Shown: positions 2,007 through 61,266, counted from the whole stretch's first letter. The stretch: 64,000 nt of DNA, filler included, from Dirinaria sp. TL-2023a (GCA_051941275.1; 31 parts of 31 records of this genome joined end to end with filler, not necessarily neighbours in it); one strand, 5' to 3'. Notes: generated from the sequence alone by a model not told the origin. Made by a program: numbers and translations.

Positions 2007-2106
2007 NNNNNNNNNNNNNNNNNNNNNNNNNNNNNNNNNNNNNNNNNNNNTTAATTAATTAANNNNNNNNNNNNNNNNNNNNNNNNNNNNNNNNNNNNNN
2101 NNNNNN
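2007..2106. other. Artificial contig linker (N-run + TTAATTAATTAA + N-run); recurs about every 2.1 kb
   Basis: The same all-frame stop linker flanked by Ns is repeated about 30 times. Confidence 0.99.
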
Positions 2107-8413: not shown

Positions 8414-10411
8414 GAAAATAACTTCGTTCGTTGTGACATTATGATAACGATCGTCGACTGTGAGTATATAACAATCAAAAGAAAAAACGAAGAAAAAAAA
8501 AACAAAAATTTAATGAAAAAGATACAGAGTATATAGTACGGCCAACCCTTAAAATTTTCTTGCGGTTGAACTATGGCAAGATCTTAGCTTGAATGCGATT
8601 TAAAACCTATAAAAACATCTTTACAAGATCGTTGTCTTGCGTCAAAAAAGCTTCAGATTCGTTAATTTGTAAGAGTCGAACGAGAAATTTGAAGCAAGTT
8701 TGTAATTGTCTTTCAGTTTGATTTTGATTGTAAATTGATTTCATTGTTGTTGAATCTCTGTTTGAAAACGATACAATAGAGTTAAAATCATCATCTGAAA
8801 TGCAATCGTTGCGATCGAATCGACGATAGAGTTATCAAATCGACAAGTTTCTCATTGTTCATCGATGATGTTGCTTGAAGAAAACGAAATGTTTTTGAAT
8901 TTGTTACAAGAAATTTATTGCTAATTTTTAGCAAAGAATTTATAAATATGTTACATCTCAGTCGCATTTCAACAGATAAACATCATTCTTTTTTTGTTAG
9001 TCTGATTCACTGAGTGCTGAAATCAGATACAGAGATTCATCGCTCAAGACTAACAATTTATATATGATCTGTGTCTTAAGCTGTTTGTAAACGAAAAGAT
9101 CAAATTCTGAATCGCGAATGAATTTCGAGATCGTTGATTTCATTCGCTCAACATTGTATATCACTAAAAATTCATACATCTGATGACGATAAACATGAGA
9201 GAAACACTGTGCTAAACGAGTCTTGATTTTTTCAATCATTGCGACGTCGTCGACTTTGTAAACATGACGACGATTGTTTCTGTTTTTTCGAATTAATATC
9301 GATAAAGAGAGAGATACATACATTTTTAGTTAAATCTACACGTTTGTATATGCTATTCTTTTGTATTATCTCAGAAATCTCGATCTCAGATTTATTAATC
9401 GCAATTCATATTTTCTTTCATATGTCTGAAAAAATTTTTGTAAAAATGAATGTTGAGAATTTAGTTTTCTTAATTTAGAACTCGATTTCATTCGTAAATA
9501 ATTATTCATGACAAATCTCGAAAGAGAAAATTAAGTCATTCGATGATTTTTATTTTTCTAAACATCATGTGTATTTTTATTCTTTTTCTTCGATCTTTCA
9601 TTAATCGAACGAAAACTTTGTATTAGCGTTGAACACTTCTGATTCAATAGTTTCAAAACGATTATTAACTCGAAATGCGAGTAATTTCATGTTTTTTCTA
9701 GTCTCAATCTCATAAACTAAGTTATCACATCTTTGACGAACAAATATTTTATCAAATTTGAAGATGCGACATTATTTGTCATGATCTTGAAGATTCTAAA
9801 ATCGTAAATTTCAATTTCGTCAATCGAAAAACGCAGAAATTCTCACATATGTTTTAGCTCTTTTATCAAAACATTTACATTTATCACTGTGACGAATTCT
9901 CGCGCGTTATTCGTCAAATGAAAATCTGCATGCACGTTGAGAAAAAATAAAAGAGTCTCAAATTTGCTGTTTTTTGATCTTTTTGATATTCGTTTCACTT
10001 TTTTCTGAGAGAGCGTTTTGAAATCAACAGATAAAAACTTCAGCTGAGATTCTGACTTCGATCGTACAAATAAAATATTTTCAAATAAATTGATTACATC
10101 ATCGAATTCGAGATCAGAGTGAGAGTCGAGATGAAAATCGAGAAAATTTTTCAGAACGTCATTATTTCGAGCTTTTTGTTTAATATCAAATGAAATTGCA
10201 CATCGTATTAAGTTTTGATACGTTTTTCTGACGTTTATGATTGTTTTATGCAGCTCGTTTGAATCGATATATCTTTAATTATCAATCAGTATGTTCGAAT
10301 ACGCAATGATTTCGAACGCTCGAATGATAACTCGCATAAACGATGACTTCACATTCATGATACTTTCAACGAACTGTAAAAATATGAAACTGAATCAGCT
10401 CACAATAACAT
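8414..10411. mobile_element. Heavily mutated AT-rich repeat relic; family not determined
   Basis: Almost no CC/GG dinucleotides and no intact ORF, the same signature as the degraded Gypsy contigs. Confidence 0.6.
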
Positions 10412-10511: not shown

Positions 10512-12008
10512 ATATCAGCAAAAATGTAAAATTTCTTTTTCATGACGTTTAAAATTATTAAATCGTTCGTTTGAAAATGATTGATCAAATGTTTACATTA
10601 GATCTTTATAAACGTATCTGCATAGAGTTTTTTTTTCTCGAACGTCATTTTCGCGTCATATCATTTCAATGCAGCACTCTTAAACGTTTCTAAAAACAAC
10701 TCGCGTAGACGAGCTTCGCTCAATGAGTCTTTAACAAAATACTTAAAACGATTCGTAAAAATATAAATATTTCGATAAAACTAATATCGATCAACAGTGA
10801 TTATAAAAAAGTTGATAAAATTCTCGTATTCAGAATCAAAATATGATAAATATCTTATGTTCTCGACGAATTTAATAATCGATATCTGATTAAATAAGTT
10901 TGCAAAAAACGATTGATTGAAATTTTCAAATCAATTGAACGTTTGATTAAATGTTGACTGAGTCGAATGACTCTGCGATGATGTTTGTGCGTTTCGAAAA
11001 ACGTCGATCATCAATGATATTAACTCACGACGCTGAGCGTTCGAAATGCAGAAACGTTAATTGAATCAGTACTCAAGTTATTATTGTCAGTGTCAAAAAC
11101 ACTGTGTGATTTATTGATAATCGTGCTGAATTCGAGATCATCGATATCTGTAACTAAATTAAAGACATTGTTAACATTGACAATATTGACGACGAAATTA
11201 ATATTTTTATCTGCGTTAAATGTCATATCGTCAAATTTCGATCGTAATATATTTTCTGTAATGTCGAAAACAGATGAGTTTTCGATAATACTCGCAGCAC
11301 GCTCAAATTGCTTCAATGTTTGTCGAAAAATCGATCGATTTAAAACTTACTCATTGAGTCACGAACGCGATGTGTTGAATGAATTATTATTAATTGTGTT
11401 ACGATTCGATGAGTCGACGAATGAGACTCGTTCTGCGTACAAGATGTTGAATAAACGATTTATTTGCTCGATGATATTTTTGACTCGATCAGACACTGCG
11501 TCATCGTACTGATGTTCAGTGACTAAAAATTTCGTTATCTGACGATTTAAAACGACAGTATGACAATCGAGACGAAGATTGAAAGTTGGATTGACGAGTC
11601 AATATCTCAGTGATGAAGAGCAGTATTAATGAAAAAACTGAACTCAATGACAATACTAACAGAAAAACAGAATTCAATGACAGAAATAACAGCGAAAATG
11701 AGAAATAATTGAACGATGAGATGAACGACTCAGGATGAGAGGCAACAACGTCAATGCAATAGAAATGCGAAGAACACAAAACGAGTGACTGTTAAACAAT
11801 CTGATAATCGCGATAAACGAACGATCTAATGATCAAAAACTTCAAAAAGCAAGATTTGATGAGTAATTAATGCTATCAATTGTGAGGGTGTTGAGGGATT
11901 AAGAATCTAAGTTCTATAGATGCTATAAAAGGATCTATATAGGCAGAAATCATGCTAACTAAAGGCGACCTAGCGATCCAACGTCATAGACCTGGGAAGG
12001 CAGTTACA
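10512..12008 (-). mobile_element. Degraded Gypsy 5' region: LTR (11881-12008) and gag remnant
   Basis: 128 bp TG..CA segment; minus-strand remnant FYRNIYIFTNRFKYF resembles the gag motif FRDIHLFIDR at about 18.0 kb. Confidence 0.65.
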
Positions 12009-12606
12009 GACCTGTCATGACAGACACTCAGAATATCATGATAACTACACGATAAACAATGTCATATAGAACATCATAACAAATAAAAACAAAAAAACAA
12101 AAAACAAAAAAAAAAAAAACAAAAAAACAAAAAACAAATCAGAAAACAAATCAAAAAACAAAAAAATCAAAACATTAAAAATCGACGACAACGATGATGA
12201 AAAATGAGACATCGTCGCAACGTTTGTATATTTATTTCGATTTTCAGTTTTCGTCGACGTTGCAGCATCGATTGATTGAAACTCAATTTATCAAACTTTC
12301 TCGATCAATTAAACTCTCTCGATCAATTAAATTCTCTCGTCGTGTAAATGTCAACATGATTGAGTCTCAATCAAAAACGACTTATTTTACTCATTTAAAA
12401 AATGAGTTTTGAACTGCGAATGCTCTCAATACATGTTAGATGATTTCAGTGTTTTTATATTTTTCATTTTCATGTCTGAACGTTTTGTGAGAGATATTAA
12501 AAATAGNNNNNNNNNNNNNNNNNNNNNNNNNNNNNNNNNNNNNNNNNNNNTTAATTAATTAANNNNNNNNNNNNNNNNNNNNNNNNNNNNNNNNNNNNNN
12601 NNNNNN

Positions 12607-16794: not shown

Positions 16795-18594
16795 TTTTGA
16801 TCGACTCTCATAATATTGATAGCATCAACAAGTTCGTTCTTTGTTTTGAACTTGACATCAGTGTAATTGTCAGCTTATACATCAATACTAATTATTCAGT
16901 ATATTAGTTCTCGTTATCAATTGAGTGAGCCGCGAAGTTCGCGTCTACTTCATCGTTCTACCTCGCTTCGATTGCATATCTCTTTGAAAGCATTGTAAAT
17001 GTATCACGATTTGACTCTTATTTTATCGTGTTGCCGCATTTTATTGTTGTTCCGAGTACTGTGTTCTAGAGTTGATGATTTTCTTTTATCTCGCTGTCGT
17101 CGTGATATTATTACATCGTCACTCTGATATTCACGTCATCTCTGATTATCACTTCGAATCTGTTGATAAAAGTCTTTCAGATAAGTGACTACTTAAAAAC
17201 GACAAAACTACTTTATTCGATATCTGAAGCAGAAGCCGTGATAAAAAGCGTTATTCACGAGTAATTTCGTTCTGCAGTATTGCGGTCTGCTTTTATTACT
17301 CGCATTACGCAGCGTGCACGTTTTTTCGAGTCATCGTCTTACTCTATCGAGTGATTAGTCAATCGTTCTAAACTTATCGCGAATATCAAGAGCTTTTTAG
17401 TCGATTACAATAAATGAAAGACAGAAAACGAAAGAGTCAGATCTGTTGCGATTACACCATCTAGAAAAGACTTTTCTACAGAAACTACGTGAGAAGAATC
17501 TTTAAACGCACTCAATCGTTAGAATTTCTTTGACATCAATATCAGTATCGAGCTAGAAACAGTCAATAAGTTGATATTACTCTTCATCGAAATCGGCATT
17601 CTCGATACGAATTCTTTTTTTATCAACGCTATTACTATATTCAATCAAGCTACAGATAGTAGTAATCACGTCAACAGCACTGCCGATCACGATAATATCA
17701 ATCTCAACGCTAGTATCAACGATAATAATAACGATATGTTAAATTGAGAAAATATCGAGTTTAGTCAACAACAATGAGCATCTCTTCAGATCTTATTTAA
17801 CATGATTGACAATAATGATGATCTTTCTAAATTATCAGACTCTCAAGATCAACAAGACTCTGCTGACGATAACAATATCGTCGTCGTCACATAATCGATT
17901 AAAAACGAATGAAACAAATGAAATATCACTGAGATAAACTTATTTAATTTTATATTTGATGACAAATCATACATTACTGATGATTCTATCGAGTACGCGA
18001 ATCGAGAGATCATATTTCGAGATATACATCTGTTTATCGATCGCATACACGATACGATGAGAACGAAAAATTCAAAATTAGTTCGCGATAATCTATACAT
18101 CTATTTGCGTGACTCTGTCATAAAGTAATACACTATTTTATCGAACTATCGTAAACGTTTGATTAGATTTAATGACGACGCGAATGAATGAATTCGTATT
18201 CTGTTGAAGAAATGAAAAGAGTTGTCTCAAACTGTCATCGCTGTCGTCACGACGAAGCCATATATTATGAAGAATGCTCGTCGACGTCGTGAGCTTTTTG
18301 ATTTTGCTCAAATAATTATTAGAGCAGCTAAATTTACTCACATGTCAGTGCTCAATCAACTAACTCTGCTTTATAACGAATTGAATGTTGAATTTCAACG
18401 CGATATTTCTGAGTCTAGTAAAAACGTTAATCTGAACACGTTCCTTGAGATATTGAAACGAAAAAAGCAAATCTAATAACGTCTAAACGAACGTCATCGC
18501 GGAGATGACAGTTATGTCTCGAATAATCGTCAGCAAGATTCTAATAAATCTAATGACAACGAATTTCACACATATGACTCAGATCAGTACAATG
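16795..18594 (+). mobile_element. Degraded Gypsy gag region
   Basis: Stop-riddled FRDIHLFIDRI...VRDNLYIYLRD...NQLTLLYNELNVEFQRDI; CC/GG depleted. Confidence 0.75.
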
Positions 18595-18724
18595 TGTCAA
18601 AGACCCAACCTTGGTTAGATAGGTTTCCCAGTGGTAAAGTTCCCGGCAGCGCCAAAAGACTAACTAAACCAAGTCAAGGGACTTGGTGCCTATCTTACTA
18701 CTTAGGTGTTCCAGGGTCGTAACA
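18595..18724 (-). mobile_element. 130 bp 3' LTR preceded by a PPT, nested in the gag relic
   Basis: Minus strand AGAGAGAGGGGTAG-TGTTACG...TTTGACA; close reverse-complement copy at 26640-26770. Confidence 0.88.
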
Positions 18725-18887
18725 CTACCCCTCTCTCTAGAGAAACCGCGTCCCGCGGTGAGCAAGGCTAATCAGAGCGAGTCATGANNNNNNNNNNNNN
18801 NNNNNNNNNNNNNNNNNNNNNNNNNNNNNNNTTAATTAATTAANNNNNNNNNNNNNNNNNNNNNNNNNNNNNNNNNNNNNNNNNNNN

Positions 18888-20365
18888 ATTCTTTGCGAAC
18901 TATGACAGAGAATCAAATCTATTCGAACATCAAAAAACAAACGTGTTTGTCAATGCAGCGAAAAAAAGAGTCGAGACACTCAAAAAAGTACACGAAAACA
19001 TTGTTAAAATGTAGAATCGATTATTCTATTATTAGAACAAGAAGAGAAAAATGACATCTCAACTAAAAAAAAGAAATAAGATCTATCTATTGATCAAAAA
19101 TTTGAAAACTAAAAAATCGAGCAAAAAACTTGATCACGTCAAGATCGAATCATTTTTCATCAGACAAGTAAAAGAATCGATAACGTTTGAATTGAAATTG
19201 TCAAAGAACGCTCGAATTCACAATGTATTTTATATATCGTTATTGAAATTAGTCGATCTCAGTACATTTATACAGAAAATCTTTTCTTTTGAATCACAAG
19301 AGAAGAACGAGTTCGAGATAAAAAGAATATTGAAACAGAGAGATCAGAGATATCTTGTTAAATGAAAAAAGTGATTTACAGAAAACAACACGTGAGAATT
19401 ACTCAGAAATCTTAAGAACTATCAGCAGACGTTGCAGTAGTTTCGAAAAAAATAGAAATCGATCAAAAATCGTCGAAAAGCTTGTTTATAGCATTTCAGA
19501 TATGTGACGACAGATTAAAAATCAGAGTATTCGACGGACTCTGGGAAATCAGAGTTTTCTAAATTTTCAATTTCTTAACATTCTTCTTCTCAATCGACAC
19601 TGCGTCATCGATACGATCATTTAAAAAATTCATTTGTTGACGAAGACGCATTTTTCGAGCAAAGACAGTGTTCAGATTCGCGCGAGCTTTCTTTTGCGTC
19701 TCGTACGCTTCTCTTATGTCTTGACGAAGTTTTGTTTTTTTCAACTTTAGACGCTCTCATTCGAACTGCGTCACACGAATGTCGCAACGCTGATCGCGAC
19801 GAAAACACTCGCTACATTTGTCGAAACGAATGTGCATCTTACAGCTGCGAGAATGCTTGACATAGATGAAGAATTTCTTAATCATTTTGTCATCGTGAAA
19901 CTTAATAAATTCTGCTAATAAATAACGACGAACGATGCTAGACTCGAGCTTACGAGTTGACATGACGAAGAATTATGAATCAGAAATAGAGAGATAAAAA
20001 ACGCTATATAAACATCGAGACGACGTTAATTTAAAAAAAATGATGTTACGACTCTGATCTGACATCTGAGATTAGCGAGAGAATTAAAAACTGATCAGTG
20101 AACTCTGAGTTTGATCAGTACTGAACAGAGAGATTTGACACTGAGCAGTGCTCAATTGATCAGCAGTGCTCAATGAACTGAGCAACTGAGCAGAACTGAG
20201 CAAGAGATTTTGACAGTTCTGAGTGAGATGTATATAAAGCTTCAACACGACGCTTTTCTGACATCGTGTTCAACATCTTTGCAATATCTATTTTTTGCTC
20301 AGAGTAACTTGTATATTGTTGTGATATCGTCATATCATCTTAAAGACACTCGTTGTTCCTTGACA
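18888..20365 (+). mobile_element. Degraded chromovirus-type Gypsy 3' end: integrase tail, chromodomain, PPT, LTR from 20044
   Basis: SKKLDHVKIESF...IHNVFYISLLK, then EFEIKRILKQR..RYLVK*..ENNT*E; purine tract then TGTTACG. Confidence 0.85.
19559..19963 (-). pseudogene. Antisense extra ORF (Cys cluster plus coiled coil) in the 3' region of the chromovirus
   Basis: ORFs 19757-19963 and 19559-19744 are in frame across one TGA: SCKMHIRFDKCSECFRRDQRCDIRVTQFE*ERLKLKK... Confidence 0.7.
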
Positions 20366-21631
20366 GACCTCTTCAACAAGATCAAACCCTAGCATCTTTC
20401 CTGTTTAGAACCTAATCCTAGATATTAGACTGATAGGACGCAACATTTTCGCGTTTTTTTCAAAATTTACTCATTTCTCATTCACATTTTTTTAGCTCTC
20501 ATTTATTTTTGTTATTACTCGTAATATTCTTTTGTCTCGTTATTGTGTGTGTATCATGTCAATCAGTGTGAGTGCTCGTCGTGTAAACAATTTCAATCGA
20601 AACGTTTTTTTTTTCGAATTAAATTTCAAAAATTTGACAGAAATGACGAATTTTTTGAAATTTAATATGTTTGAGTTTTATTGAACAATCTATATCAAAG
20701 ATTTTCTAAAACAGATCAAAAGATTTGAACGAAAAAAAAAAACGTTCGCGTTTCAAAAACGCGAATTTTCGCAATGTGATGAATCGAATCAATAAAAACG
20801 AGAAAACTGATTTGATCAAATATTTTATCAAAATTTTCAAAAAAAAAAGCGATAAGATGTCACAAATTACAAAACNNNNNNNNNNNNNNNNNNNNNNNNN
20901 NNNNNNNNNNNNNNNNNNNTTAATTAATTAANNNNNNNNNNNNNNNNNNNNNNNNNNNNNNNNNNNNNNNNNNNNGAGGAGAGAATGTGTGTTCGTGTGT
21001 GCGCGGACGATCTCGTAGGTTGCACAGATGACCGAACTGAAAACGAGCACAGTCTCAAAGAGATAGAGAGCGAGAAAGAGGATCGAGCCCATGCATGCGC
21101 ACAGTTGCTGTGGAGAGAGAGAGAAAAAAACACTCCTGGATTCAAGGTGCGTATCGAGGCAGAGACCATGGCGATGCGGAGTGGATCGTTTAGGAGAGAT
21201 TGGTAGGATTACCTATATCGAAAGGCAAATCCTGGGATTCTAAGGCAGAATGGCTTCGACAAAGGCACTGGCATTCAACAACGAGAGACAAAACCAGATT
21301 GGGTACCACAGCTTCTGGGCGAGAAGCGGATCGCAAAAGGAATATGGGGCGTTCGATGTTGATTTGTTTCCATATATTGATAATATCATTTGGGCAAATA
21401 TCCAACCAATTATGTAATTTCGCGATTCTCCGAGGTATGTTGTCCAAAGCTGGCCCAGCCAGTTGCTCAATTCTTCTTTAAGACTCAAAAGCAGGAGATG
21501 AATGGGCTCTGTAATTCCCCTCTACACCCAAAGGGGAAATCTGTTTAGACAAAACGCCAATGCCATGCTGATCCAGACGTCCTCTCCGCTCAACGCCGTT
21601 GCATATATCCCCAACAGTCGCATATAGATAA

Positions 21632-26427: not shown

Positions 26428-26639
26428 TTACATTAAATCAAGTCAACACGGTCGCAAGGTTCTGAGTTCGATTCCCAGCCCGGACGCTTGAAGGGTTGTT
26501 TGAGTTTCGGCGAGGCCTTACGGCTGAGAGCTTACTTACTAAGCTCGGGGCGACTACTTAACCGTTCCATTTAAGGCAAATCTCCTACCACACCCTGGCG
26601 CTGAGCTTCGTGCCGAAGCTCAGAGAGGGACCCGAGTAG
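26428..26639 (+). mobile_element. tRNA-derived SINE-like structured segment
   Basis: T-arm/B-box CTGAG-TTCGATT-CCCAG at 26462-26478 plus several perfect hairpins. Confidence 0.5.
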
Positions 26640-26770
26640 TGTTACGACCCTGGAAACACCTAAGTAGTAAGATAAGCACCAAGTCCCTTGACTTGGTTTA
26701 GTTAGTCTTTTGGCGCTGCCGGGACTTTTACCATGGAAAACCTATCTAACCAAGGTTAAGGTCTTTGACA
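26640..26770 (+). mobile_element. LTR, 131 bp, same family as 18595-18724
   Basis: TGTTACG...TTTGACA; few differences from the other copy. Confidence 0.88.
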
Positions 26771-29316: not shown

Positions 29317-30294
29317 CCATTCCCTCCCACCCTCTACATCCCTCGCTCCAAACTTCACTACCGTCGCCTTTCCGCCTCTTACTTTAGCGACCGTCCAGGT
29401 CAGGCCATCTCTCTTCTCCCTTTCCTGTCTCTCCATTCTCCATTTCTCCCTCCCTTCAAGCTTCGGAACACCCATCGAAGACTCCGCGTTCCAATTCTTC
29501 GCCCCAATGCGAGGAAGCGCATTGAACTCCTCGCACATGAAATCCGCGAGAGCTTGGAGCAGTGGCCCGACGAGGATCAGCGTGCCGAAGATGCCCAGGG
29601 ACTCCATCCTGGCCCTGATTTGGGGGCCGGAAAGTACGACGTTATCTCTCAGCAGGAGCTTTGTTTTCTTTTCCCGTTCCTCTGTAGTAGGGTTATCCCT
29701 GGGTGGGTCAGACACGAGCCAGACCTCGTTCTTGCCCTTCCAACCACCGAATGCCCAGCTCTCGTGTCTCGCGCTCCGGCCCTCGGACACCCAATCCAGC
29801 ATGCCTAGACTGGCGCCTTCGCGCAGCTCGAAGATCTGAGTCTGCGCATAATGGCTATCGGCGAATGGCTGTGTCGGGTGTGGGGCGTAGAAAAGGGCTG
29901 AACCGGGATTCAGGGTGCAATGCAGCGTTTGGGTTGCGAGGGGCGGAGGATGAGAGGCTGGGTTTTCGGGCTTGTAGATCTTTGTTGAGCCTTGCGTTGC
30001 GATCGTAAGGCGAGCGGAGGCTGCAAGTGTGATGTTGAGGGTTATGTGGTCCGTGGAGAGAAGGCCGCCACCATAGGTCAAGAGGAAGAGGAGAGGCACT
30101 GTCTTGGGTATCACATGGCCATGCTTCGAGGAAGCCGGAGAAGGAGACGAGAGCGTGTGAGAGTTTGAGGGTAGGAGCTTCAGTGGGTATGTGTAATTCA
30201 AGGTGGTAAAGGTGGGATTTGCGGGTGGGAGAAGCTCGAGGTGGAGGTTGCCGCTGCCGGGAGTGCAGGCTGGGAGGGGAAATGGAGATGACAT
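29317..30294 (-). CDS. ureD: Urease accessory protein UreD, 3'-truncated
   Basis: YTYPLKLL, LLTYGGGL, TQGSTKIYK, PTQPFADS, LDWVSEGRSARHESW. Confidence 0.93.
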
Positions 30295-30641
30295 GTCAGC
30301 ATTTCGTTGGCTTGATGCTTTGCCAGGCCTCGAAGGCCTAGCTGTCGAATATAAGACCAATTGGCAAATCCCAGTGCCTGAAACCCAGTTTCTGTATCGC
30401 ATCCGCCTCGATGCTCCTCCGCCAAGGAAAGCCAAGATTTTGATCTTATCTGATCGATCGTTCCATCTCGCACACTAATGCCCTTAGTGCAGCAGTCCGT
30501 CCCATAACTCGAATCGCGTCAACCCAGAGCCCACACGTAAACTTTCAAAACGTGCATCACAGACTTTTCTCATGCCCACATCCTGTCTACCTGAGCACAT
30601 TTAGAACTTTCGCGCTGTAAATGCCCGCCAGGCTGTCAAGT

Positions 30642-35537: not shown

Positions 35538-37507
35538 CTGACGCGTCTTTGCGCGAATCATGTCGAACAGATTGTGCAGTTCAGTCATCGACATCATTTC
35601 GCTGACATTGATTTTCTTAGACTCATAGAGTCTCACAATCTTATTTACCTCATTCAATATTTCGCTCGATTCTGATATCCTTCTCTGCGAAGGCGTCTCG
35701 ATGATGCCTCGTTCACTTGTCGACGTCGCGCCGACCGCGTTCACCTCATCGCGACGGTCAGAGTGAATCGCGGGCCTCATCGCCAGTGATAACCCTCAGT
35801 AGCTCTTCGAATTCAAAGGTAGTTTTAATTGATAATATGATCGAGTTCCTCAATCCCTTTATCGTTCGACGATCAATTTAAATTGATTAAATTTATTTTA
35901 TTCGCGATTTGTTTCGAATAAAATAATTGATATTTCTTTTCATGCAATTAATCAGAGTAACGTTCTTCATCTGAGAACGTTTTTTTTTCTGATAAAAGAG
36001 ATTATAGTATTTCGCAAAACTCGTTGAGTCTTGTTTGAGAATGTCGCGAAGATAGTTTCGAGCATCTTCGATTTCGAAAAAGTTTTCACAACAATGACGA
36101 AGATTTTGACGTCATTCGACGAAACTGATTAGTGTACAGAGATCATTTACTCGATATTAACTCATTAAATTATGAGTCTTCTTTTTTATCGTGAGTCGAG
36201 ACTCATCATAAACGATTTTGAAACGATCAATGAGATAACGATCGTGATTTACATTCATGCGCTGTATTAGATTTTGCTCTCACGCGTCTAAATGATCTTT
36301 GTCTCTCTCATACTCAAATATATTCGAAAGTTTCTCGAATCTGAGAGCGATAAGAATAATTTGACCGACAGTCGACGTAAAAAAGAGATTAATAACAGAC
36401 GAGACATACGTGAGCGAAAATTGATTCTGAAAAATTTGAGTTATCATCTGAGTTATTATACTCATTGATCGCGGATCGAGTGAGATCACGAGCGAAAAAG
36501 ACGAAAAGAACGAAATAAACGAAAACGACGTGATATCGACATTGAAACGAGCATGATTAAATTCATTTTGAAGCTTTCTGAATTGACGAAAGACTTCAGC
36601 TGAATCTTGAGTTATCTGCTGAGCAAATTTATCGACGCTCAGCTCGATTTCGAAAAGATTCTCGAAATGCTTCATTGAGTCGAGGATTCGTATAGTGACT
36701 GTATACGCGTGATAAATACGAACAGCGAGATTTTCAACGCGTGAAAGCGTTGTGAGAATTGTAAATCTTTTGTAATGTCAAGAGCTGAGCTGAAATCTAT
36801 TCATAAATAGAGATTAACGAGGTTTTATTATTAGATGAACTTAGATCAATATACTGAGTATTATACAAGACGAAAGACAAAGAAAGAAAAAGGGGAATGG
36901 GGTTGCTCTGGAATATAACATTAGCAACCCCTATAGCCGCATACGCGACCCGTAGAAGGCTTGGCAAGCTTGATTAAAGGACTGTGCAACTTAGCACCAT
37001 GACAGAGAGACTCATTATCGAGACTGAGAAACGAACAGCTCACTGCGAAAAAAGTGACAACTGTTACGAGCATGCACCTGATACACTACCTGGGGCGACA
37101 CCTCCCAGGGTTCTTAGGGGTAATGCGCTAACCCGATCGAGGTGTTTACCCGATATCCGCACACACGCATATATACCCGGGACCCCCTATTGTATCTAGT
37201 TTTCCTTCTTCTTCCTTTCTTAGTGATAATATCTTAGTTAACTATATCTGCATTGACTTGCTCTGCACCTGTCCTAACAACAACTGCGTAGATAGAGTGT
37301 ATAGAGTTTACTCAGACAGTCAAGTCTTACTAAAAGTGATACACACAATGATCTCGACAACAGATTAGTCACGTTTACGACGCATACAGAGCGCGTGCGA
37401 GACGATACGAGAAAAAAGAGCTTCACTCGAATTTCACTGAATACTCGATTACAAAAAAATAAAAGATAATGAAGAAACGAATAAAATAGTCAACGAGATA
37501 CACAAAT
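35538..37507 (-). mobile_element. Degraded Gypsy gag plus LTR region
   Basis: KLSNIFEYERDKDHLDA*EQNL..RMNVNHDRY gag-like remnant; CC/GG depleted. Confidence 0.75.
37062..37279 (+). mobile_element. Solo LTR, 218 bp, with 5 bp TSD ACAAC
   Basis: ACAAC-TGTTA...TAACA-ACAAC. Confidence 0.9.
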
Positions 37508-42984: not shown

Positions 42985-43026
<42 letters not shown>

Positions 43027-45024
43027 ATCTTGGAGAAAAATAGGCCGCAAATCAGACTTAGATCAAGAGAAAAATAATAATAGCTGATTTATTCAACAAC
43101 AACGCTGGATATCTTGGAAGACTAAATATCGAGGGTGAGACTGGCAGGTATGCTTCAGTTTGCGTCAAGTGGTAATGAATGAAAACATTCACAATGCGTT
43201 TCAGAGAGAAACTTGGCTGAGCTTGCGGGCTGTTTCACGGGGTCCAAACCATGAATCATGCATTCAAGCAGCAAATAGAGAGGGAAAAAACCTGAACCAT
43301 TGAGGAAGAAAATCGTAATCAAGGCGATTGTTATAGTTCCAAGACCAATGCCAGAGAAAGATCGTTGCTAAGATCTGAGCGGTATGGAACACCATTCTTA
43401 GCAAAAATGTTAGCTTCACTGCTGGTAGGGCGGGTGGAAAGTTGAAGATGAGACTCCAGGCCATGAAACAACAAAAGTTTGACATTCCTAAAAACTACGT
43501 CGTAGCTCTACTCGAAGCCAGAGCGAAACGCAAGATAGACAGTAGCATTATTGAAACTAATTTCAAGAAAATAGCTCGAAATTCATGCGTCAAGCAGAGA
43601 CTGAGAGGTATCGAACCTCCTGCCGCCCAAGTTCGGTACTTATTACAGTTCCATGATTTGGGCAGGACGTGCTTGGTACCTTGCAAAACGCTGCGNNNNN
43701 NNNNNNNNNNNNNNNNNNNNNNNNNNNNNNNNNNNNNNNTTAATTAATTAANNNNNNNNNNNNNNNNNNNNNNNNNNNNNNNNNNNNNNNNNNNNAGTCT
43801 GAACTGGCTGTTGGTTGGCGGTGTTTTGATTAATGGCGGTGGCATGCGTCTCCGACAACAAGTGAACGTCTTGGCGATAACGTGGAGAGGATCGCAATGG
43901 TAGCATGATTCTTGATGCACCTGATGCAGGTGCAGAGGGTGCTGCATTGATGCAGATGATGCAGCTATTGGTTTCTCTGATGAGTTTGCTTTTGCCTGAA
44001 GAATGTGGAGGTTTAAATTGGAACTTCTCCAACCTTTGCAGTCCAATTGGCCCCTCAGCTGCCGCGAAGATAACGCTTCACCTGACCGGAATTCGGGTTC
44101 CACCGCACATCCATAAGGCAGAAATCGTCCAACGACCTGCCTTGGAACCAAGAGACATCTATCCGGCATACCTTACTCAACGCAGTACGATACCTCATCG
44201 CGCATCCACTGAGACGCCGCCTGCTATGGCAGGGATGACGTCAAACATTTCGGTCTTACAGAAATGTAAAGTACATCGATCAATCTGCAACCCATTCGAC
44301 TGGCCCCAGCTTGGAACCTATTCGCCGTCCGCCCCGCAACGGCGATGAGGCTCATTCGATCAACAACGGTACCTATGGGATCGGGTCGTGCTGCAAACAC
44401 GGAGTACTTGCAGAGGACCTCAATTGGGATTACGGTATGCATAATTTTATGCCAAGGCTTGGCGCTCGAGAAGCCCCACCTTACATGTGCACAAACACGC
44501 ATAAGTGGGAAGATCTTCCTGTGTGTGTATGTAAACCCGTGGAATCGAAGTTCAGATGATTCAGAGGTTATACTCGGTATATGGGTTTGGTTGTGGACGA
44601 AAGTCCTATGTGGGTACGACTGAGCAGGAAAAAGAGATAAAATGGGAGGCCGGGGATGAATGGGAAAGGAAGAGGGGTTGGTGTTCATGCCAAGACTGTA
44701 AGCATGAATCCCGCTGCCTAGAGCTGATCGTGAGAGAGCTTGTATACAGTATCAAATATCCAGTATACAAGTAACGTGTGCAACGAAGTCGCTGTTCCTG
44801 TTGCCATCGGATTTCGCAAAACGAACATAATAGTAAAGACACGAAGGTGACTGCACCTGCAGGATAGCCAGCTCTCGACCTCATGCTCCGGGACCCTTTC
44901 TACTGGGACCATTCCTACGAGGGCTCGATCCGCACCAATATCTTGATTCGTCTCCAGTACTTAAAGTTGAAAATTTATCAGCACATCACGAACATCTGAA
45001 GAATCTACCATCAGAAATTCTGCA

Positions 45025-45850: not shown

Positions 45851-46888
45851 AGATCTTCGTTTTTCTCGTCTCAGAGTCGCGACGATTTCGTCTCTTCACA
45901 TATTTTGAGTACTTCGAACAAACAGAGTCGCTAATTTTGTGATTAGACTGATCACAAATATAACATCGAACATTGAAAAAAACGTCAGAAACGCTTTCAG
46001 AGATTTCGCTTCGCGAGCGATTCTAAGAGCGATTTTCGCGATCACGAGAAAAGTTGTTTCGTTCGCTCTTGTCACGTTTCACGTGATTCTCTGACTGATT
46101 CGATTCGTTTGACGACTTAAAGTTATCATTATTCTCAGTTGCAGCGAACGTGTTGCCACGCTTTTGCGAGAATTTGTTATCTTCACGATCGTTTTTACTC
46201 GTGCTGTTATTATTGAAAGAAGCATCAGACTTGTTTAACGATCTCATACTGCGTAAACGCTGCTCTATTGTCATATATTCTTGACGCACTTCGTTAATAA
46301 TTTCGTGAGGCATGTTGATCGCTTGAGACTTATAACGAATTTTATTCAGAATCTTGATTCGCAGATACATAATCTTAATAGTATTCGACGTCTCTCGATT
46401 CAATTGATGATACAAATTTTTCAAATAAATGGCAAATTCGTTTACATTTTGAGTGAATCATTGTTTGATCGATTCGATTTTCATTTCGATTTCAATGATG
46501 CGGATCTTGAACGTGATTAATCATTCTCGCACGTGAGTAACAAAATGATCTCAAATGAAAAGATCTTTAATTTCGTTTGCATGAGTGCGTCACTCATCTC
46601 GTCGCTTGTCGTTAAGTCGGGATGCAGTTTAAACGATCTTGTGACTCTCTGTGAGATAATTCAGTATGTTATCACGAAATCAATTCTCACAGTCTGCGAA
46701 TCGAATGCGAAAGTTGTTAACATTGATGACATTCTGCATCTCTGACTCTTTCACACGAGTGTTTATTTTGCGTTTGTTTCGCATTTTCTCGCGATAATGA
46801 TCATCGTTATGTTCACGACGATGTACGCGAAGACGTTCTTTCGCGAGCGATGTTTTGACTTCAGCGAGCTCAGCTCTGACTTGTAGAA
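45851..46888 (-). mobile_element. Hypermutated gag of the same Gypsy family as 1-2006
   Basis: LYHQLNRETSNTIKIMYLR..KIRYKSQAINMPH aligns to LYNQLERETPDAIKIMHLR..KIRYESQAINMPH. Confidence 0.92.
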
Positions 46889-47804
46889 TGTAACAGTGAT
46901 ACCTGATACATTGATATATATTGACCAATGCAGGCTAGCGCCGCTTGGCAGTCGGGGGTGCCCAGGGGCAATCCTTCGGGGTCTGAAGCATGACTAGCGC
47001 CGTCTAGAAGCCAGCGTCGAAAGATTGAATCTCGAGATTAACTAGAAGTCAATGAGCGATTGACGCTTATAAAGCATTGTGTCTACGAGCGCTCGTGACT
47101 CGTCAGCGCGAAGCTCGTCACGATGAGACAATGTTAACGCTCGCGATTAAGTATAAAGAATCACTCATCTTTTCGAGAAAGATTCTTAGTGATTAATTTT
47201 AGCAGAAACTACAGTATCAAATAATCATATAATCTATTACACTGTCACGTTTTTCACACAAGTACTGCGTCGACGAATAATCGACGCATACGATCTTACA
47301 GTTTTAATCACTTCAATCTTTTGAAGAGAAAGACTCGAAGTGTAATAGTGATGACGTCTTCACGTGAAGTGTCAGAGTCTCAACAATCGAAAAACGATTT
47401 TGAAATCGTTTCGAGCGATCGCTCGTTTCTCGTCGTCGCGATTTTATCAAACGACGTTGAGTCAAACAACAGTTCGAACATTTTGCGAAATGAGCTCGCT
47501 CAACGCATTCACGACTTGAAATCTCAAAATCAGCTGTTACGAAATCAACAACGATTGCGAGATCTGAAAAAAAAAAGAATCGTCAGTTAAATAGCGATCT
47601 CTTGTTTGAATTCGTCGATTCGACGACGTCTCTCTCTGTTAAAGACAAAAGCATTAAATCAGAGAAAATACGTCTCTACAAAAAAAAGAGTCAGAGCGAG
47701 CATATTAAATGATTTAAAAACGCGAAAATTAGATATTTGATGAGCTCGAAGTATTTTTCAAATGATCGCATCAAGATCGTTTTTTGTATGCAATCGTTAG
47801 AAAA
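46889..47804 (+). mobile_element. Second Gypsy element (5' LTR and degraded gag start) nested in the opposite orientation
   Basis: TGTAACAG start; coiled coil then IKSEKIRLYKKKSQSEHIK*F...DRIKIVF gag-like text. Confidence 0.65.
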
Positions 47805-49857: not shown

Positions 49858-52192
49858 NNNNNNNNNNNNNNNNNNNNNNNNNNNNNNNNNNNNNNNNNNN
49901 NTTAATTAATTAANNNNNNNNNNNNNNNNNNNNNNNNNNNNNNNNNNNNNNNNNNNNCGCCCACTCTCGCCCACGTGCATCGAATCAAAGATGTTATAAG
50001 AAGCGAAGTGATCTTGATAGAGATCGAGCCGGAAAGCCATCGAAAATCTTTGACAGGAGTTCTCGAATACGAGAGCACGAGCATGGAGATCGTTCAACAT
50101 GTCAAGCACAAACCTCAGACGCAGAACTTATCTCAAATGAACATGAAGGAGCTTCATGCCTTCACTGAAGATCAAAATACGGGAACTCAGAATGCTGTCA
50201 CTCAAATAAGCAAAACTTAAAGCCACGCTACTCTCCCATATACTAAATACAAGATCAGCAATATCATCAATAGATCTATAGCGCGAAAACAAGCACTCAG
50301 TCTCATGCTGACGACGCTTATGTGCCACTCGCAAGGATCGATGGTAGTAGCAATGTCCGGGTGGAGGAGTTGGAGAATAATTGGGACTCTGGTATTGACG
50401 AGGTGAGGGCGTTAGTGAAAGCTAGAACTTTTTGTTTTATTGATGAGCAGGAGAAAGAAGCTCACGTGCTGGATTCTACAATCGCGACGTTACGAGTCCT
50501 CATAATCACTCATTTCCTCGATTATTCAGTTCAAATCGACACTTGGAAAGATCTTCAAATTTGTTACAGCTCTTTACAAAGCTACCTTAAGAACGAGGGC
50601 TTTCATACGCGGTCACGAACTTGTCAAAATTCTTCAAGTATTACAGCAGAAGAAAGAAGATCGTTCAAAACGCCCAACACAAACCCTATGAGTGGAACTT
50701 CTCGCGTGAACATGAAAGCTGTTGATGAATTCATACAACAGCAGACGCGGAGACTTGAAAATACCTTTTTTTACAATCACGACGTCACGGATCAACGTAC
50801 TCACTCAGTCTCAATATCAGAACATTTCGACGAACACTTTGAAGAATCTTCAAATTTGCTATAGCCCTCTCTTCAGAAGGCTGAAGACACATTTCAATCA
50901 AAACCTCGAAGGAGGACTCAGAGTCCAAGAAAATCTCACGTAGCATCACAGAAAAAAGAGATCCGTCGAAAATGTCCAACACAACCCTACGAGCGGGATT
51001 TCTCTCGTGGACATAAAGATGTTCATGAATCCATCCAAAAGCAGACATGGAGAGCTTAAGGTACGGTATATGTAACCTCTCATCCTCGGAGTCAGGGATT
51101 ACAAGCAGCCGTTTCGAAAAGACAGACCCTATCGCTGTCGATCTACAAGGTAGCCGAACGCAAGTTTGGTGCCAAATCCAGACTTTATGTTATAGTATCT
51201 ATCTTCCGGCACTTCATCATAATTGTCAACTTCTTAACTTGCTTCTGCTTTCAATTATCTACTCCATGAGCTAATTGGCTGAATCACAATTCTCTCGGGG
51301 GCTTCTGATTCTTTTCTGTGGATACAGACATTCATAAAGTTGAAGACATGGATTGATAAAGATTTCGAAGGAGGATGGAGCTCATATGCTACTAGGCGCA
51401 TGGGTTCATTTGCTGGCATTCGACATTGAAAAAAATTCCGAGGAAATTATTTTTCTGAAAAATGAAACAGAGATCATTCTCTCAAATTGAGATTCTCAGT
51501 CAATTCGAAATCGCGAACTGAGATATCTTCGTCAAAAGATCATACTCATTCTTTCCGAGATCAAGAAAACTTCAGTCAATTCGTGCAAAAGTTTTGACAG
51601 TTGTCATCATCCGTCACGAACTCAAACATGGATTTTTCTCAAGATCATAGTTCTGAAGAAGAGAATCGAGTTTACGAGAAACACTCGAAGTTCTCGAACT
51701 TAAATTGTCATTTCTACTTCTTGATTCAATTGCAATTGATTCAATCACGTTTCTTTTCGCGATTCCTGAGTATGTTCTGTGGATACAGACATTCATAGAA
51801 CTGAAGACATGGATAGACAAAAATCCCGAAGAAGGATCAAAAAATAAGAAATCGATCAAGATTCTTGAGATGAGAAAAACTTTTCGAGACACATAGAATT
51901 CATTTGCTAGNNNNNNNNNNNNNNNNNNNNNNNNNNNNNNNNNNNNNNNNNNNNTTAATTAATTAANNNNNNNNNNNNNNNNNNNNNNNNNNNNNNNNNN
52001 NNNNNNNNNNCGCTCGCTCGCTCCTCCTGACGATCCATTCTTGGCAACAAACCACCCGTTACTACTACTACTGCGCGCTCAGATCATACCTACCTTAACC
52101 AGAAGATCTTCAATACATAAAATGCTACTTAACGACCGCCAAGCTGCACCAAAAAGCAAATATTCATGAAGGATTCAGGATCAAATGCACTA

Positions 52193-60642: not shown

Positions 60643-61266
60643 AGAAGTAGAACCACCGTCACCAAGGCTGATATTATCTGGGATATCCCCAACCTGAAAG
60701 GCTCAAGTAATTGGATAACCTGGGAGGGAAGACTCATTTCGGCCTTGAAGTGTGAAGGATTCGATTATGTGCTCACTGACAGTCCTCCACCGGCTACATC
60801 GCCTCAACAACGTATCCTGGATTTCAAGATCCATGACACTAAGACCCATGCATTAATCGTTTCGAAGTGTGAGGACAGCCCTCTCGACACCATCAGCCAT
60901 TGCACAACTGCAAAAGAAGCATATGAGACGCTGAAGTGCCAATATCTTGATACTAGTTTTGCAGCTAAGCATCTTATCTTCCAGGAGCTGGCTGCCACTA
61001 CAATCTCTAGCCCCGGTATCGGAGGTGACCTTGAAGCATATGTAACGGCTCACAGTCTCCTCAGGCATGATCTGAAAGCCATCGATGACACAATTCCTGA
61101 TTGGGTTTTCTGCTCAGTATTGGTCGAGAATCTGGAAGGGCGTTATAAGAAGTTCGCCGTAACTGTCACTGTACAGAAGGAGTTACCAATATTCAATAAT
61201 CTTGCCGCTGAGCTCTACAAGTTTGACCGTTACGAAAAGCGTATCCAGGGGAAGATTCAGTATTAA
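60643..61266 (+). CDS. Copia-type Gag-like open frame with no pol downstream; start unresolved
   Basis: IPNLKGSSNWITW, TAKEAYETLK..Y, LEAYV, LKAIDDTIPDW...LVENL..RY. Confidence 0.7.
   Translation, partial: RSRTTVTKADIIWDIPNLKGSSNWITWEGRLISALKCEGFDYVLTDSPPPATSPQQRILDFKIHDTKTHALIVSKCEDSPLDTISHCTTAKEAYETLKCQYLDTSFAAKHLIFQELAATTISSPGIGGDLEAYVTAHSLLRHDLKAIDDTIPDWVFCSVLVENLEGRYKKFAVTVTVQKELPIFNNLAAELYKFDRYEKRIQGKIQY

Follow-up and report, generated by a model that had tools for sequence, protein, structure and literature searches.

The question raised by this locus is which process turned a retrotransposon gag gene at 45851-46659 into an AT-rich relic, and which cytosines that process attacks. The initial annotation had proposed a RIP-like defence that changes CpC to TpC. 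The window, i.e. the whole 64-kb stretch of DNA that was analysed, consists of 31 contigs of about 2 kb each, joined by N44-TTAATTAATTAA-N44 linkers and ordered by decreasing size from 2,006 bp to about 1,937 bp, the last one being clipped by the window end. As the contigs were joined artificially, those adjacent in the window are not genomic neighbours.

The long, intron-poor ORFs of the window code for proteins that are common in eukaryotes, namely UreD, an Omp85/Sam50-type protein, an M20 peptidase, HlyIII and an MFS transporter, and the gene-bearing contigs have a normal composition. The best named relatives of UreD are found in lichen-forming Lecanoromycetes only, with 59% identity to Physcia stellaris and 55% to Heterodermia; many proteins of Teloschistales and Lecanorales are 49-55% identical, and the top match overall reaches 64%. 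Since these relatives are all lecanoromycete, the host was treated as a lecanoromycete-type ascomycete. No methyltransferase was seen among the window ORFs scanned, and Rfam and tRNA scans of the whole window gave 0 matches. The open copia-type gag represents a second retrotransposon family; it is unmutated and its contig is of normal composition. With a CpG observed/expected ratio of 0.58 and a CA/TG of 1.24, the contig at 47905-49857 is lowest and highest, respectively, in the window, a tendency opposite to that of the mutated tracts described below. All feature coordinates are collected in Table 1.

Table 1. Features of the window and of the comparison loci; ratios are observed/expected.
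Feature	Position	Strand	Remarks
Aspartyl protease ORF	420-1226	minus	after the gag frame, contig 1-2006
Intact GC-rich Ty3/gypsy gag	1207-2006	minus	open frame; weak Pfam Retrotrans_gag and zf-CCHC matches
First linker	2007-2106		then every ~2.1 kb; stop in all six frames
AT-rich contig with CC/GG signature	8414-10411		CC/GG 0.08, CpG 1.99, TC/GA 1.55
AT-rich contig with CC/GG signature	10512-12506		CC/GG 0.17, CpG 2.05; island 11886-12011
Mutated tract with sharp end	16795-18603		normal composition from 18604; step in sliding profile
Relic of Ty3/gypsy integrase C-terminus and chromodomain	18888-20875	plus	CC/GG 0.10, CpG 1.74
UreD ORF	29317-30474	minus	
Mosaic contig, mutated tracts plus normal islands at 35648-35856 and 36821-37273	35538-37507		CC/GG positions
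Hypermutated dead Ty3/gypsy gag copy	45851-46659	minus	GC about 0.38
CC/GG-poor contig of the mutated gag	45851-47804		signature throughout except island 46902-47011
CC/GG-poor continuation upstream of the gag relic	46660-46901		CC/GG counts
Unmutated 110-bp island	46902-47011		20 of the contig's 26 CC/GG
Second mutated tract, same contig as the gag relic	47012-47804		0 CC/GG in 793 bp, 55.9 expected
Open copia-type gag ORF	60643-61263	plus	Retrotran_gag_2, E = 4e-13
Islands	8540-8606, 11886-12011, 20358-20436, 35648-35856, 36821-37273, 46902-47011		CC/GG positions
AT-rich comparison tracts	L005:1-1000, L007:1-10000, L009:1-3000, L016:1-10000		GC 0.10-0.30

All-vs-all BLASTN and a transition-tolerant Smith-Waterman search (465 pairs, both strands) found one alignable repeat pair in the window, the two gag copies; the only other homology between contigs that these searches returned was one 136-nt repeat and short low-complexity matches. 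The latter came from purine-rich, A-rich runs at 11900-12100 and 42985-43030, which give K/Q/N repeats in one frame and are probably microsatellite-like sequence; no other inter-contig BLAST matches were obtained. The gag and protease frames of the contig at 1-2006 make up the 5' part of a Ty3/gypsy-type element. A homologue search with the gag gave 1 protein, 49% identical, and none of 148 pattern matches in metagenomes was a relative.

The intact gag served as the ancestor proxy for counting changes. The alignment of 1207-2006 with 45851-46659 contains 797 aligned pairs, of which 552 are identical (69%), and the counts were the same with the transition-tolerant aligner and with MAFFT. The homology noted initially between 1859-2006 and 46512-46660 is thus real, with all six example changes listed for it present, and it is part of this longer match. 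From the intact to the mutated copy we counted 74 C>T, 79 G>A, 18 T>C and 17 A>G changes along with 57 transversions, i.e. 153 changes in the C:G>T:A direction vs 35 reverse transitions. The directional C>T change on both strands that the initial annotation had described is therefore borne out, here as hypermutation of a retrotransposon copy, and it agrees with the C:G>T:A excess between copies that is a hallmark of RIP. C>T and G>A are interleaved along the copy (67 runs vs 77.4 expected, z = -1.69), and this alternation indicates that both strands of one molecule were hit, i.e. that a duplex was mutated. The mutated gag has 6 in-frame stops, 4 of them at Trp codons (three TGG>TGA and one TGG>TAA). 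It should be noted that the 7% transversions between the copies mean that the GC-rich copy is not the direct progenitor of the mutated one.

To obtain the sequence context of the changes, every C of the GC-rich gag copy was counted on both strands. The share of C converted to T depended strongly on the 3' neighbour (chi-square 107.6, 3 df, p = 3.6e-23), being 76% for CpC (73/96), 49% for CpT (43/88), 22% for CpA (23/104) and 12% for CpG (13/112); by Fisher's test CpC differed from CpT with p = 2e-4, from CpA with 1e-14 and from CpG with 3e-22. With context-normalised counts the CpC excess that had been proposed is thus found in the gag pair, and the converse outcome, no excess over the other contexts, was not obtained. 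Background transitions in the pair amount to 8.0% for T>C and 11.5% for A>G. As the 12% of CpG equals this background rate, CpG is no target at all, and CpA is converted at about twice the background. Of the sites first described as surviving, CpG and CpA are indeed mostly kept. CpT, which the initial annotation had not listed, is a clear secondary target. The preference for CpA>TpA typical of RIP is not seen. These rates rest on about 400 cytosine sites of one family, because a single pair could be aligned.

The base 5' of the cytosine had little effect (AC 34/84, CC 43/96, GC 37/117, TC 38/103), while the base at +2 mattered. For CpC, conversion reached 53/59 when A or T followed (CCW, i.e. 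CCA or CCT), 11/15 in CCG and 9/21 in CCC; for CpT the corresponding figures were 29/41 in CTW (CTA or CTT), 10/22 in CTG and 4/24 in CTC. A or T at +2 favours conversion and C at +2 disfavours it, with 21/119 sites converted when all contexts with C at +2 are pooled. Within CC it is the 5' C that is the target: among 35 isolated CC sites (no preceding C, purine after) 25 had become TC, 1 CT and 3 TT, and 3 were unchanged, as had been stated at the outset in contrast to APOBEC3G.

These counts bear directly on two alternatives. The first is that an AID/APOBEC-like single-strand deaminase edits the retrotransposon cDNA during reverse transcription. The C that APOBEC3G deaminates on single-stranded cDNA is the 3' one of CC, which gives GG>AG on one strand. 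The aligned pair is a retrotransposon and CC is a known motif of APOBEC3G, as this explanation would have it; however, cDNA editing is strand-specific, and here the changes are equal and interleaved on the two strands (74 vs 79). The 5' C of CC is hit 25:1 and not the 3' C, positions +1 and +2 matter where the 5' neighbour does not, and tracts without recognisable retroelement coding share the signature (see below). Neither 5'-neighbour specificity nor a strand-asymmetric G>A pattern, the marks of AID/APOBEC editing, was observed. Because of the strand symmetry in particular, cDNA editing fails as an explanation and we regard it as highly improbable.

The second alternative is mutagenesis by UV photoproducts at dipyrimidines in a sun-exposed lichen. 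The targets CC and CT are dipyrimidines, and to that extent they agree with it. UV-linked deamination is described, in the part of the source available, as affecting the 3' C in RCCR sites with TpCpG as a hot motif (PMC6648339). In the gag pair the 5' C is hit instead, the 22 RCCR sites (purines on both sides) having given TC at 14, CT at 1 and TT at 1; TCG was mutated at 5/36 sites only, tandem CC>TT changes account for 3/35 isolated sites, and 25 other contigs of the assembly are unaffected. Since the mutated C of CC is not the one expected from UV and TCG is rarely changed, the UV explanation fails and seems scarcely credible.

The signature is not confined to 45851-46670, where it had been placed: it is present there, and it also covers most of 45851-47804 and five other contigs. 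Six AT-rich contigs out of 31 (GC 0.30-0.39) have the same unusual dinucleotide profile, and the other 25 are unaffected. CC/GG observed/expected is 0.08-0.47 in the six contigs vs 0.67-1.14 in the others, and CpG 1.68-2.05 vs 0.58-1.19; in the six, TC/GA is 1.42-1.55, TpA is not raised (0.49-0.80) and CA/TG is near 1. Of 186 window slices of 500 bp, 29 have a CC/GG observed/expected below 0.4, and these are clustered in the same number of contigs, 6/31. As the five extra contigs can be aligned to no other, apart from short low-complexity matches, they are independent samples, for which the evidence is compositional only.

We pooled 9,283 bp of mutated DNA, leaving out the aligned gag region, for comparison with 45,143 bp of normal contigs. 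A surviving C is followed by another C in 1.6% of cases in the mutated DNA vs 23.4% in the normal. Observed/expected ratios of the pooled tracts are 0.05 for CCA, 0.14 for CCT, 0.07 for CCC and 0.16 for CCG, and CGA and CGT are enriched 2.6-2.7-fold. The +2 rule derived from the gag pair predicts fewer CTA and CTT and more CTC and CTG, and this is what the pooled tracts show. The observation is a real one with overwhelming statistical support, and it is general in the assembly.

The RIP indices give the same picture. The ratio (CpC+GpG)/(TpC+GpA), defined in the accessible text of the RIPCAL paper, drops from 0.97 in the intact gag to 0.04 in its mutated counterpart; normal contigs have a value of 0.79 and the remaining mutated DNA one of 0.03. 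TpA/ApT is 0.49-0.60 in mutated DNA vs 0.70 in normal contigs and so lies under the threshold of 0.89 as quoted in the available part of PMC3897900; indices built on TpA miss the signature, as the initial annotation had anticipated. (CpA+TpG)/(ApC+GpT) in mutated DNA is 1.12-1.14, and no window slice (0/186) has a CA/TG observed/expected below 0.4.

Along the individual contigs the depletion is often complete, with tracts of zero CC/GG spanning 648 to 1,805 bp where 29 to 81 are expected. In the contig of the gag relic, 45851-46901 (1,051 bp) has 6 CC/GG vs 76.8 expected, the minimum of 1000 shuffles being 54, and 47012-47804 has 63 CpG vs 28.0 expected. The contig at 8414-10411 has all its 7 CC/GG within 8540-8606, and 8607-10411 (1,805 bp) has 0 vs 81 expected (lowest of 1000 shuffles 58); six-frame Pfam searches of this contig, with stops read as X, gave no match. 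Similarly, 10512-11587 (1,076 bp) has 0 CC/GG where 53.1 are expected. In the contig at 16795-18787 there are 12 CC/GG in 16795-18590 and then 29 in 18604-18787. The same six-frame Pfam search gave an LEDGF match at chance level in this contig (E = 0.016), which we rejected, and nothing else was found. In the mosaic contig CC/GG observed/expected is 0.00-0.15 at 35938-36837 and 0.83-1.27 at 36738-37337.

A transposon origin could be shown for 2/6 tracts, the gag relic and the integrase/chromodomain relic. In the latter, the frame at 18889-19590 has a match to SH3_Tf2-1 (E = 1e-5) that falls short of the curated cut-off, and a weak one to Chromo (E = 0.043). Its stretch YLVK*KK*...NT*E contains three stops, all TGA, at what we take to be conserved Trp positions of the chromodomain consensus.

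Borders are sharp at about 18604, 36821, 46902 and 47011, where CC/GG density changes between almost nil and the normal level over tens of bases. Inside otherwise CC-free DNA there are islands of normal composition, 67 to 450 bp long, which show no mutual similarity and no Rfam or tRNA match; they may be spared single-copy spacers or later insertions. As to confinement to repeats, the borders are thus sharp and most contigs untouched, with transposon relics recognised in the two tracts named.

Two shorter or more diverged repeats were also seen. The 136-nt repeat has copies at 18595-18728 and 26636-26770 on opposite strands with 94% identity; both are unmutated, and the first directly adjoins a saturated tract. 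With its 136 nt the repeat may fall below the length that the mutating process recognises. At 49958-51910, at least three units of about 460 bp each are repeated in tandem; this array was excluded from all counts, because its units have diverged so far that only the last ~100 nt align reliably. Its loss of CC/GG is intermediate and varies along the contig (observed/expected 0.17-1.07) with a TC/GA of 1.51, and the array may be a partly mutated repeat.

A slower process is another explanation, namely DIM-2-type non-CG methylation of CCW and CTW in heterochromatic relics followed by mitotic deamination of 5-methylcytosine, with no duplication sensing and no premeiotic burst. The same class of enzyme with its reading of the 3' side would fit the context counts, and a tract-limited pattern suits heterochromatin domains as well as repeats. 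Further, the family retains an unmutated gag copy alongside a saturated one, which is easier to understand if chromatin state and age decide; the contigs of the pair could also, in principle, come from different strains within one assembly. On the other hand, zero CC/GG over 1.8 kb, borders within tens of bp and intact 110-bp islands look like an enzymatic sweep, and CpG, the usual methylated and fast-decaying site, stays at background (13/112 vs 8-11.5%). We therefore consider slow decay unlikely.

To compare related fungi, we collected 80 metagenome loci, in total 916 kb or 3,546 windows of 500 bp, with a profile built from 14 UreD proteins. None of these (0/3,546) had a CC/GG observed/expected below 0.4, the minimum being 0.47, vs 29/186 here, and CA/TG fell below 0.4 in 90/3,546 vs 0/186 here. 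The AT-rich tracts beside UreD in L005, L007, L009 and L016 have CA/TG 0.00-0.26, TpA/ApT 1.14-1.82 and CC/GG 1.3-2.7, and the UreD proteins of these loci are 58-70% identical to proteins named Pseudevernia and Lecanoromycetidae. Pattern and kinship together indicate that lichen fungi of the same class carry canonical CpA RIP, of which the signature of the present organism is the mirror image. The comparison tracts begin within a few hundred bases of UreD and look like textbook CpA>TpA RIP; the loci L007 and L016, which belong to two different records, are nearly identical. In the three closest loci, L001-L003 (UreD 60-62%), there is no AT-rich tract.

The comparison loci also bear on whether the signature could be an artefact or foreign DNA, i.e. 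chemically converted reads, misassembly, or an organism natively without CC/GG. The contigs that make up the window are small and unplaced, the purity of the assembly is uncertain, and lichen assemblies often mix several organisms. Against this, bisulfite-type conversion hits one strand per molecule, while here both kinds of change, C>T and G>A, occur in turn over distances of tens of bases; the AT-rich gag can be matched position by position to a GC-rich copy of its own element; and mutated and normal DNA adjoin inside single contigs. A foreign genome natively poor in CC/GG has no counterpart among the other fungal contigs (0/3,546 windows). Because both strands change in one molecule and mutated and normal DNA meet within contigs, chemical conversion fails as an explanation, and an artefact or foreign origin as a whole seems very unlikely.

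Taken together, we suggest with a probability of about 0.8 that these tracts result from RIP-type targeted C-to-T hypermutation of duplex transposon-derived DNA with the non-canonical target CC(W) > CT(W). In such a process a pyrimidine at +1 would make a C convertible, C far more so than T, and A or T at +2 would make conversion easiest (about 90% in CCW and about 70% in CTW), while C before G would be left at the background rate and C before A be changed at some twofold of it. The process would continue to zero CC/GG and destroy reading frames, typically by turning Trp TGG into TGA, and, owing to the survival of CpG and CpA, would halt at a GC content of about 30-38%. Sequence duplication would presumably be the trigger.

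C5-methyltransferase-type enzymes discriminate on the 3' side, and AID/APOBEC deaminases are classed by the 5' neighbour. The agent would read the 3' side of the target C, as would a C5-methyltransferase-type RID/DIM-2 enzyme, and not the 5' side. Given the reading of +1 and +2 with no 5' effect, a RID/DIM-2-class enzyme with altered target recognition is the most economical agent, and the chances that it is the actual one seem to us about even. We further speculate that the lineage has re-targeted its repeat-mutation machinery, or else uses an undescribed cytosine-converting enzyme, since CCW > CTW is hit and CpG never touched where other Lecanoromycetes show classical CpA; the case for this falls a little short of even odds.

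Among fungal genome defences RIP is the textbook case; it depends on a RID/Masc1-class (or DIM-2) cytosine methyltransferase homologue and takes place before meiosis. Its CpA preference is built into all standard RIP detectors, i.e. TpA/ApT, the composite index and AT-rich k-mers. Genomes with the CC/GG-erasing form would score 'RIP-free' although a sixth of the window is hypermutated. Target choice can flip within one fungal class, and a CpC lineage next to lichen fungi with classical RIP would be a natural pair for mapping the RID/DIM-2-type residues that read +1 and +2. A RIP relic may be neither poor in CpG nor extremely rich in AT, which alters expectations for heterochromatin recruitment and for the binning of lichen metagenomes. 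If the re-targeting is true, it would be a natural switch of RIP specificity; its AT-rich product with 2x the expected CpG could stay a substrate for CpG methylation and heritable silencing, and surveys by TpA index or AT-rich k-mers would have missed such genomes systematically.

How does this signature compare with systems already described? The literature searched, which included few subscription journals and no supplements, contained no CpC-dominant RIP, and a prior description may exist. Clutterbuck 2011 is reportedly a survey of 49 ascomycetes and could hold a relevant CpC case. The RIPCAL paper, in its accessible text, lists CpC>TpC as one of four formal classes and reports CpA dominance, and the available text of Amselem et al. 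(PMC4352252) gives CpA, CpT and CpG signatures with CpC absent from it. As far as the accessible parts of these sources go, both the RID and the DIM-2 pathways of Neurospora prefer CpA (bioRxiv 10.1101/344036), and a 2025 survey of 1,239 fungal genomes describes RIP-like defences as sharing the CpA preference (PMC12543289). Lichen genome papers, in the portions available, infer RIP from GC content, RIPper or TpA indices with the context not given.

With classical, Neurospora-type RIP the present signature shares dense C:G>T:A changes on both strands of transposon copies, nonsense codons, and saturating, AT-rich tracts with sharp borders. It differs in the target, which is CpA in classical RIP, whereas here CC/GG falls to 0.08-0.47 with CA/TG near 1 and TpA not raised. 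For Magnaporthe oryzae, Botrytis cinerea and Sclerotinia sclerotiorum the accessible text (PMC4352252) gives CpT as the predominant or a secondary signature and links it to a RID-specific motif. These fungi resemble our case in that a pyrimidine is accepted at +1, CpT being second-best here (43/88), but they also carry CpA signatures, whereas here CpC dominates and CpA is nearly spared. The TpCpG hypermutation of Pucciniomycotina (Microbotryum, Puccinia, Melampsora) is likewise a RIP-like, non-CpA context, lineage-specific and clade-conserved in the available text of Horns et al. (PMC3318451); its target is CpG with a 5' T, in contrast to the present case in which CpG is the most protected site, TCG is mutated at 5/36 and the 5' base is irrelevant. 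APOBEC3G has the CC dinucleotide in common with the process seen here, but here the 5' C changes (GG>GA) on both strands. The CpC-dominant signature is best filed as a new form of RIP-like hypermutation; it lacks the classical CpA preference and shows the C:G>T:A excess and the mutation of both strands that are typical of RIP.
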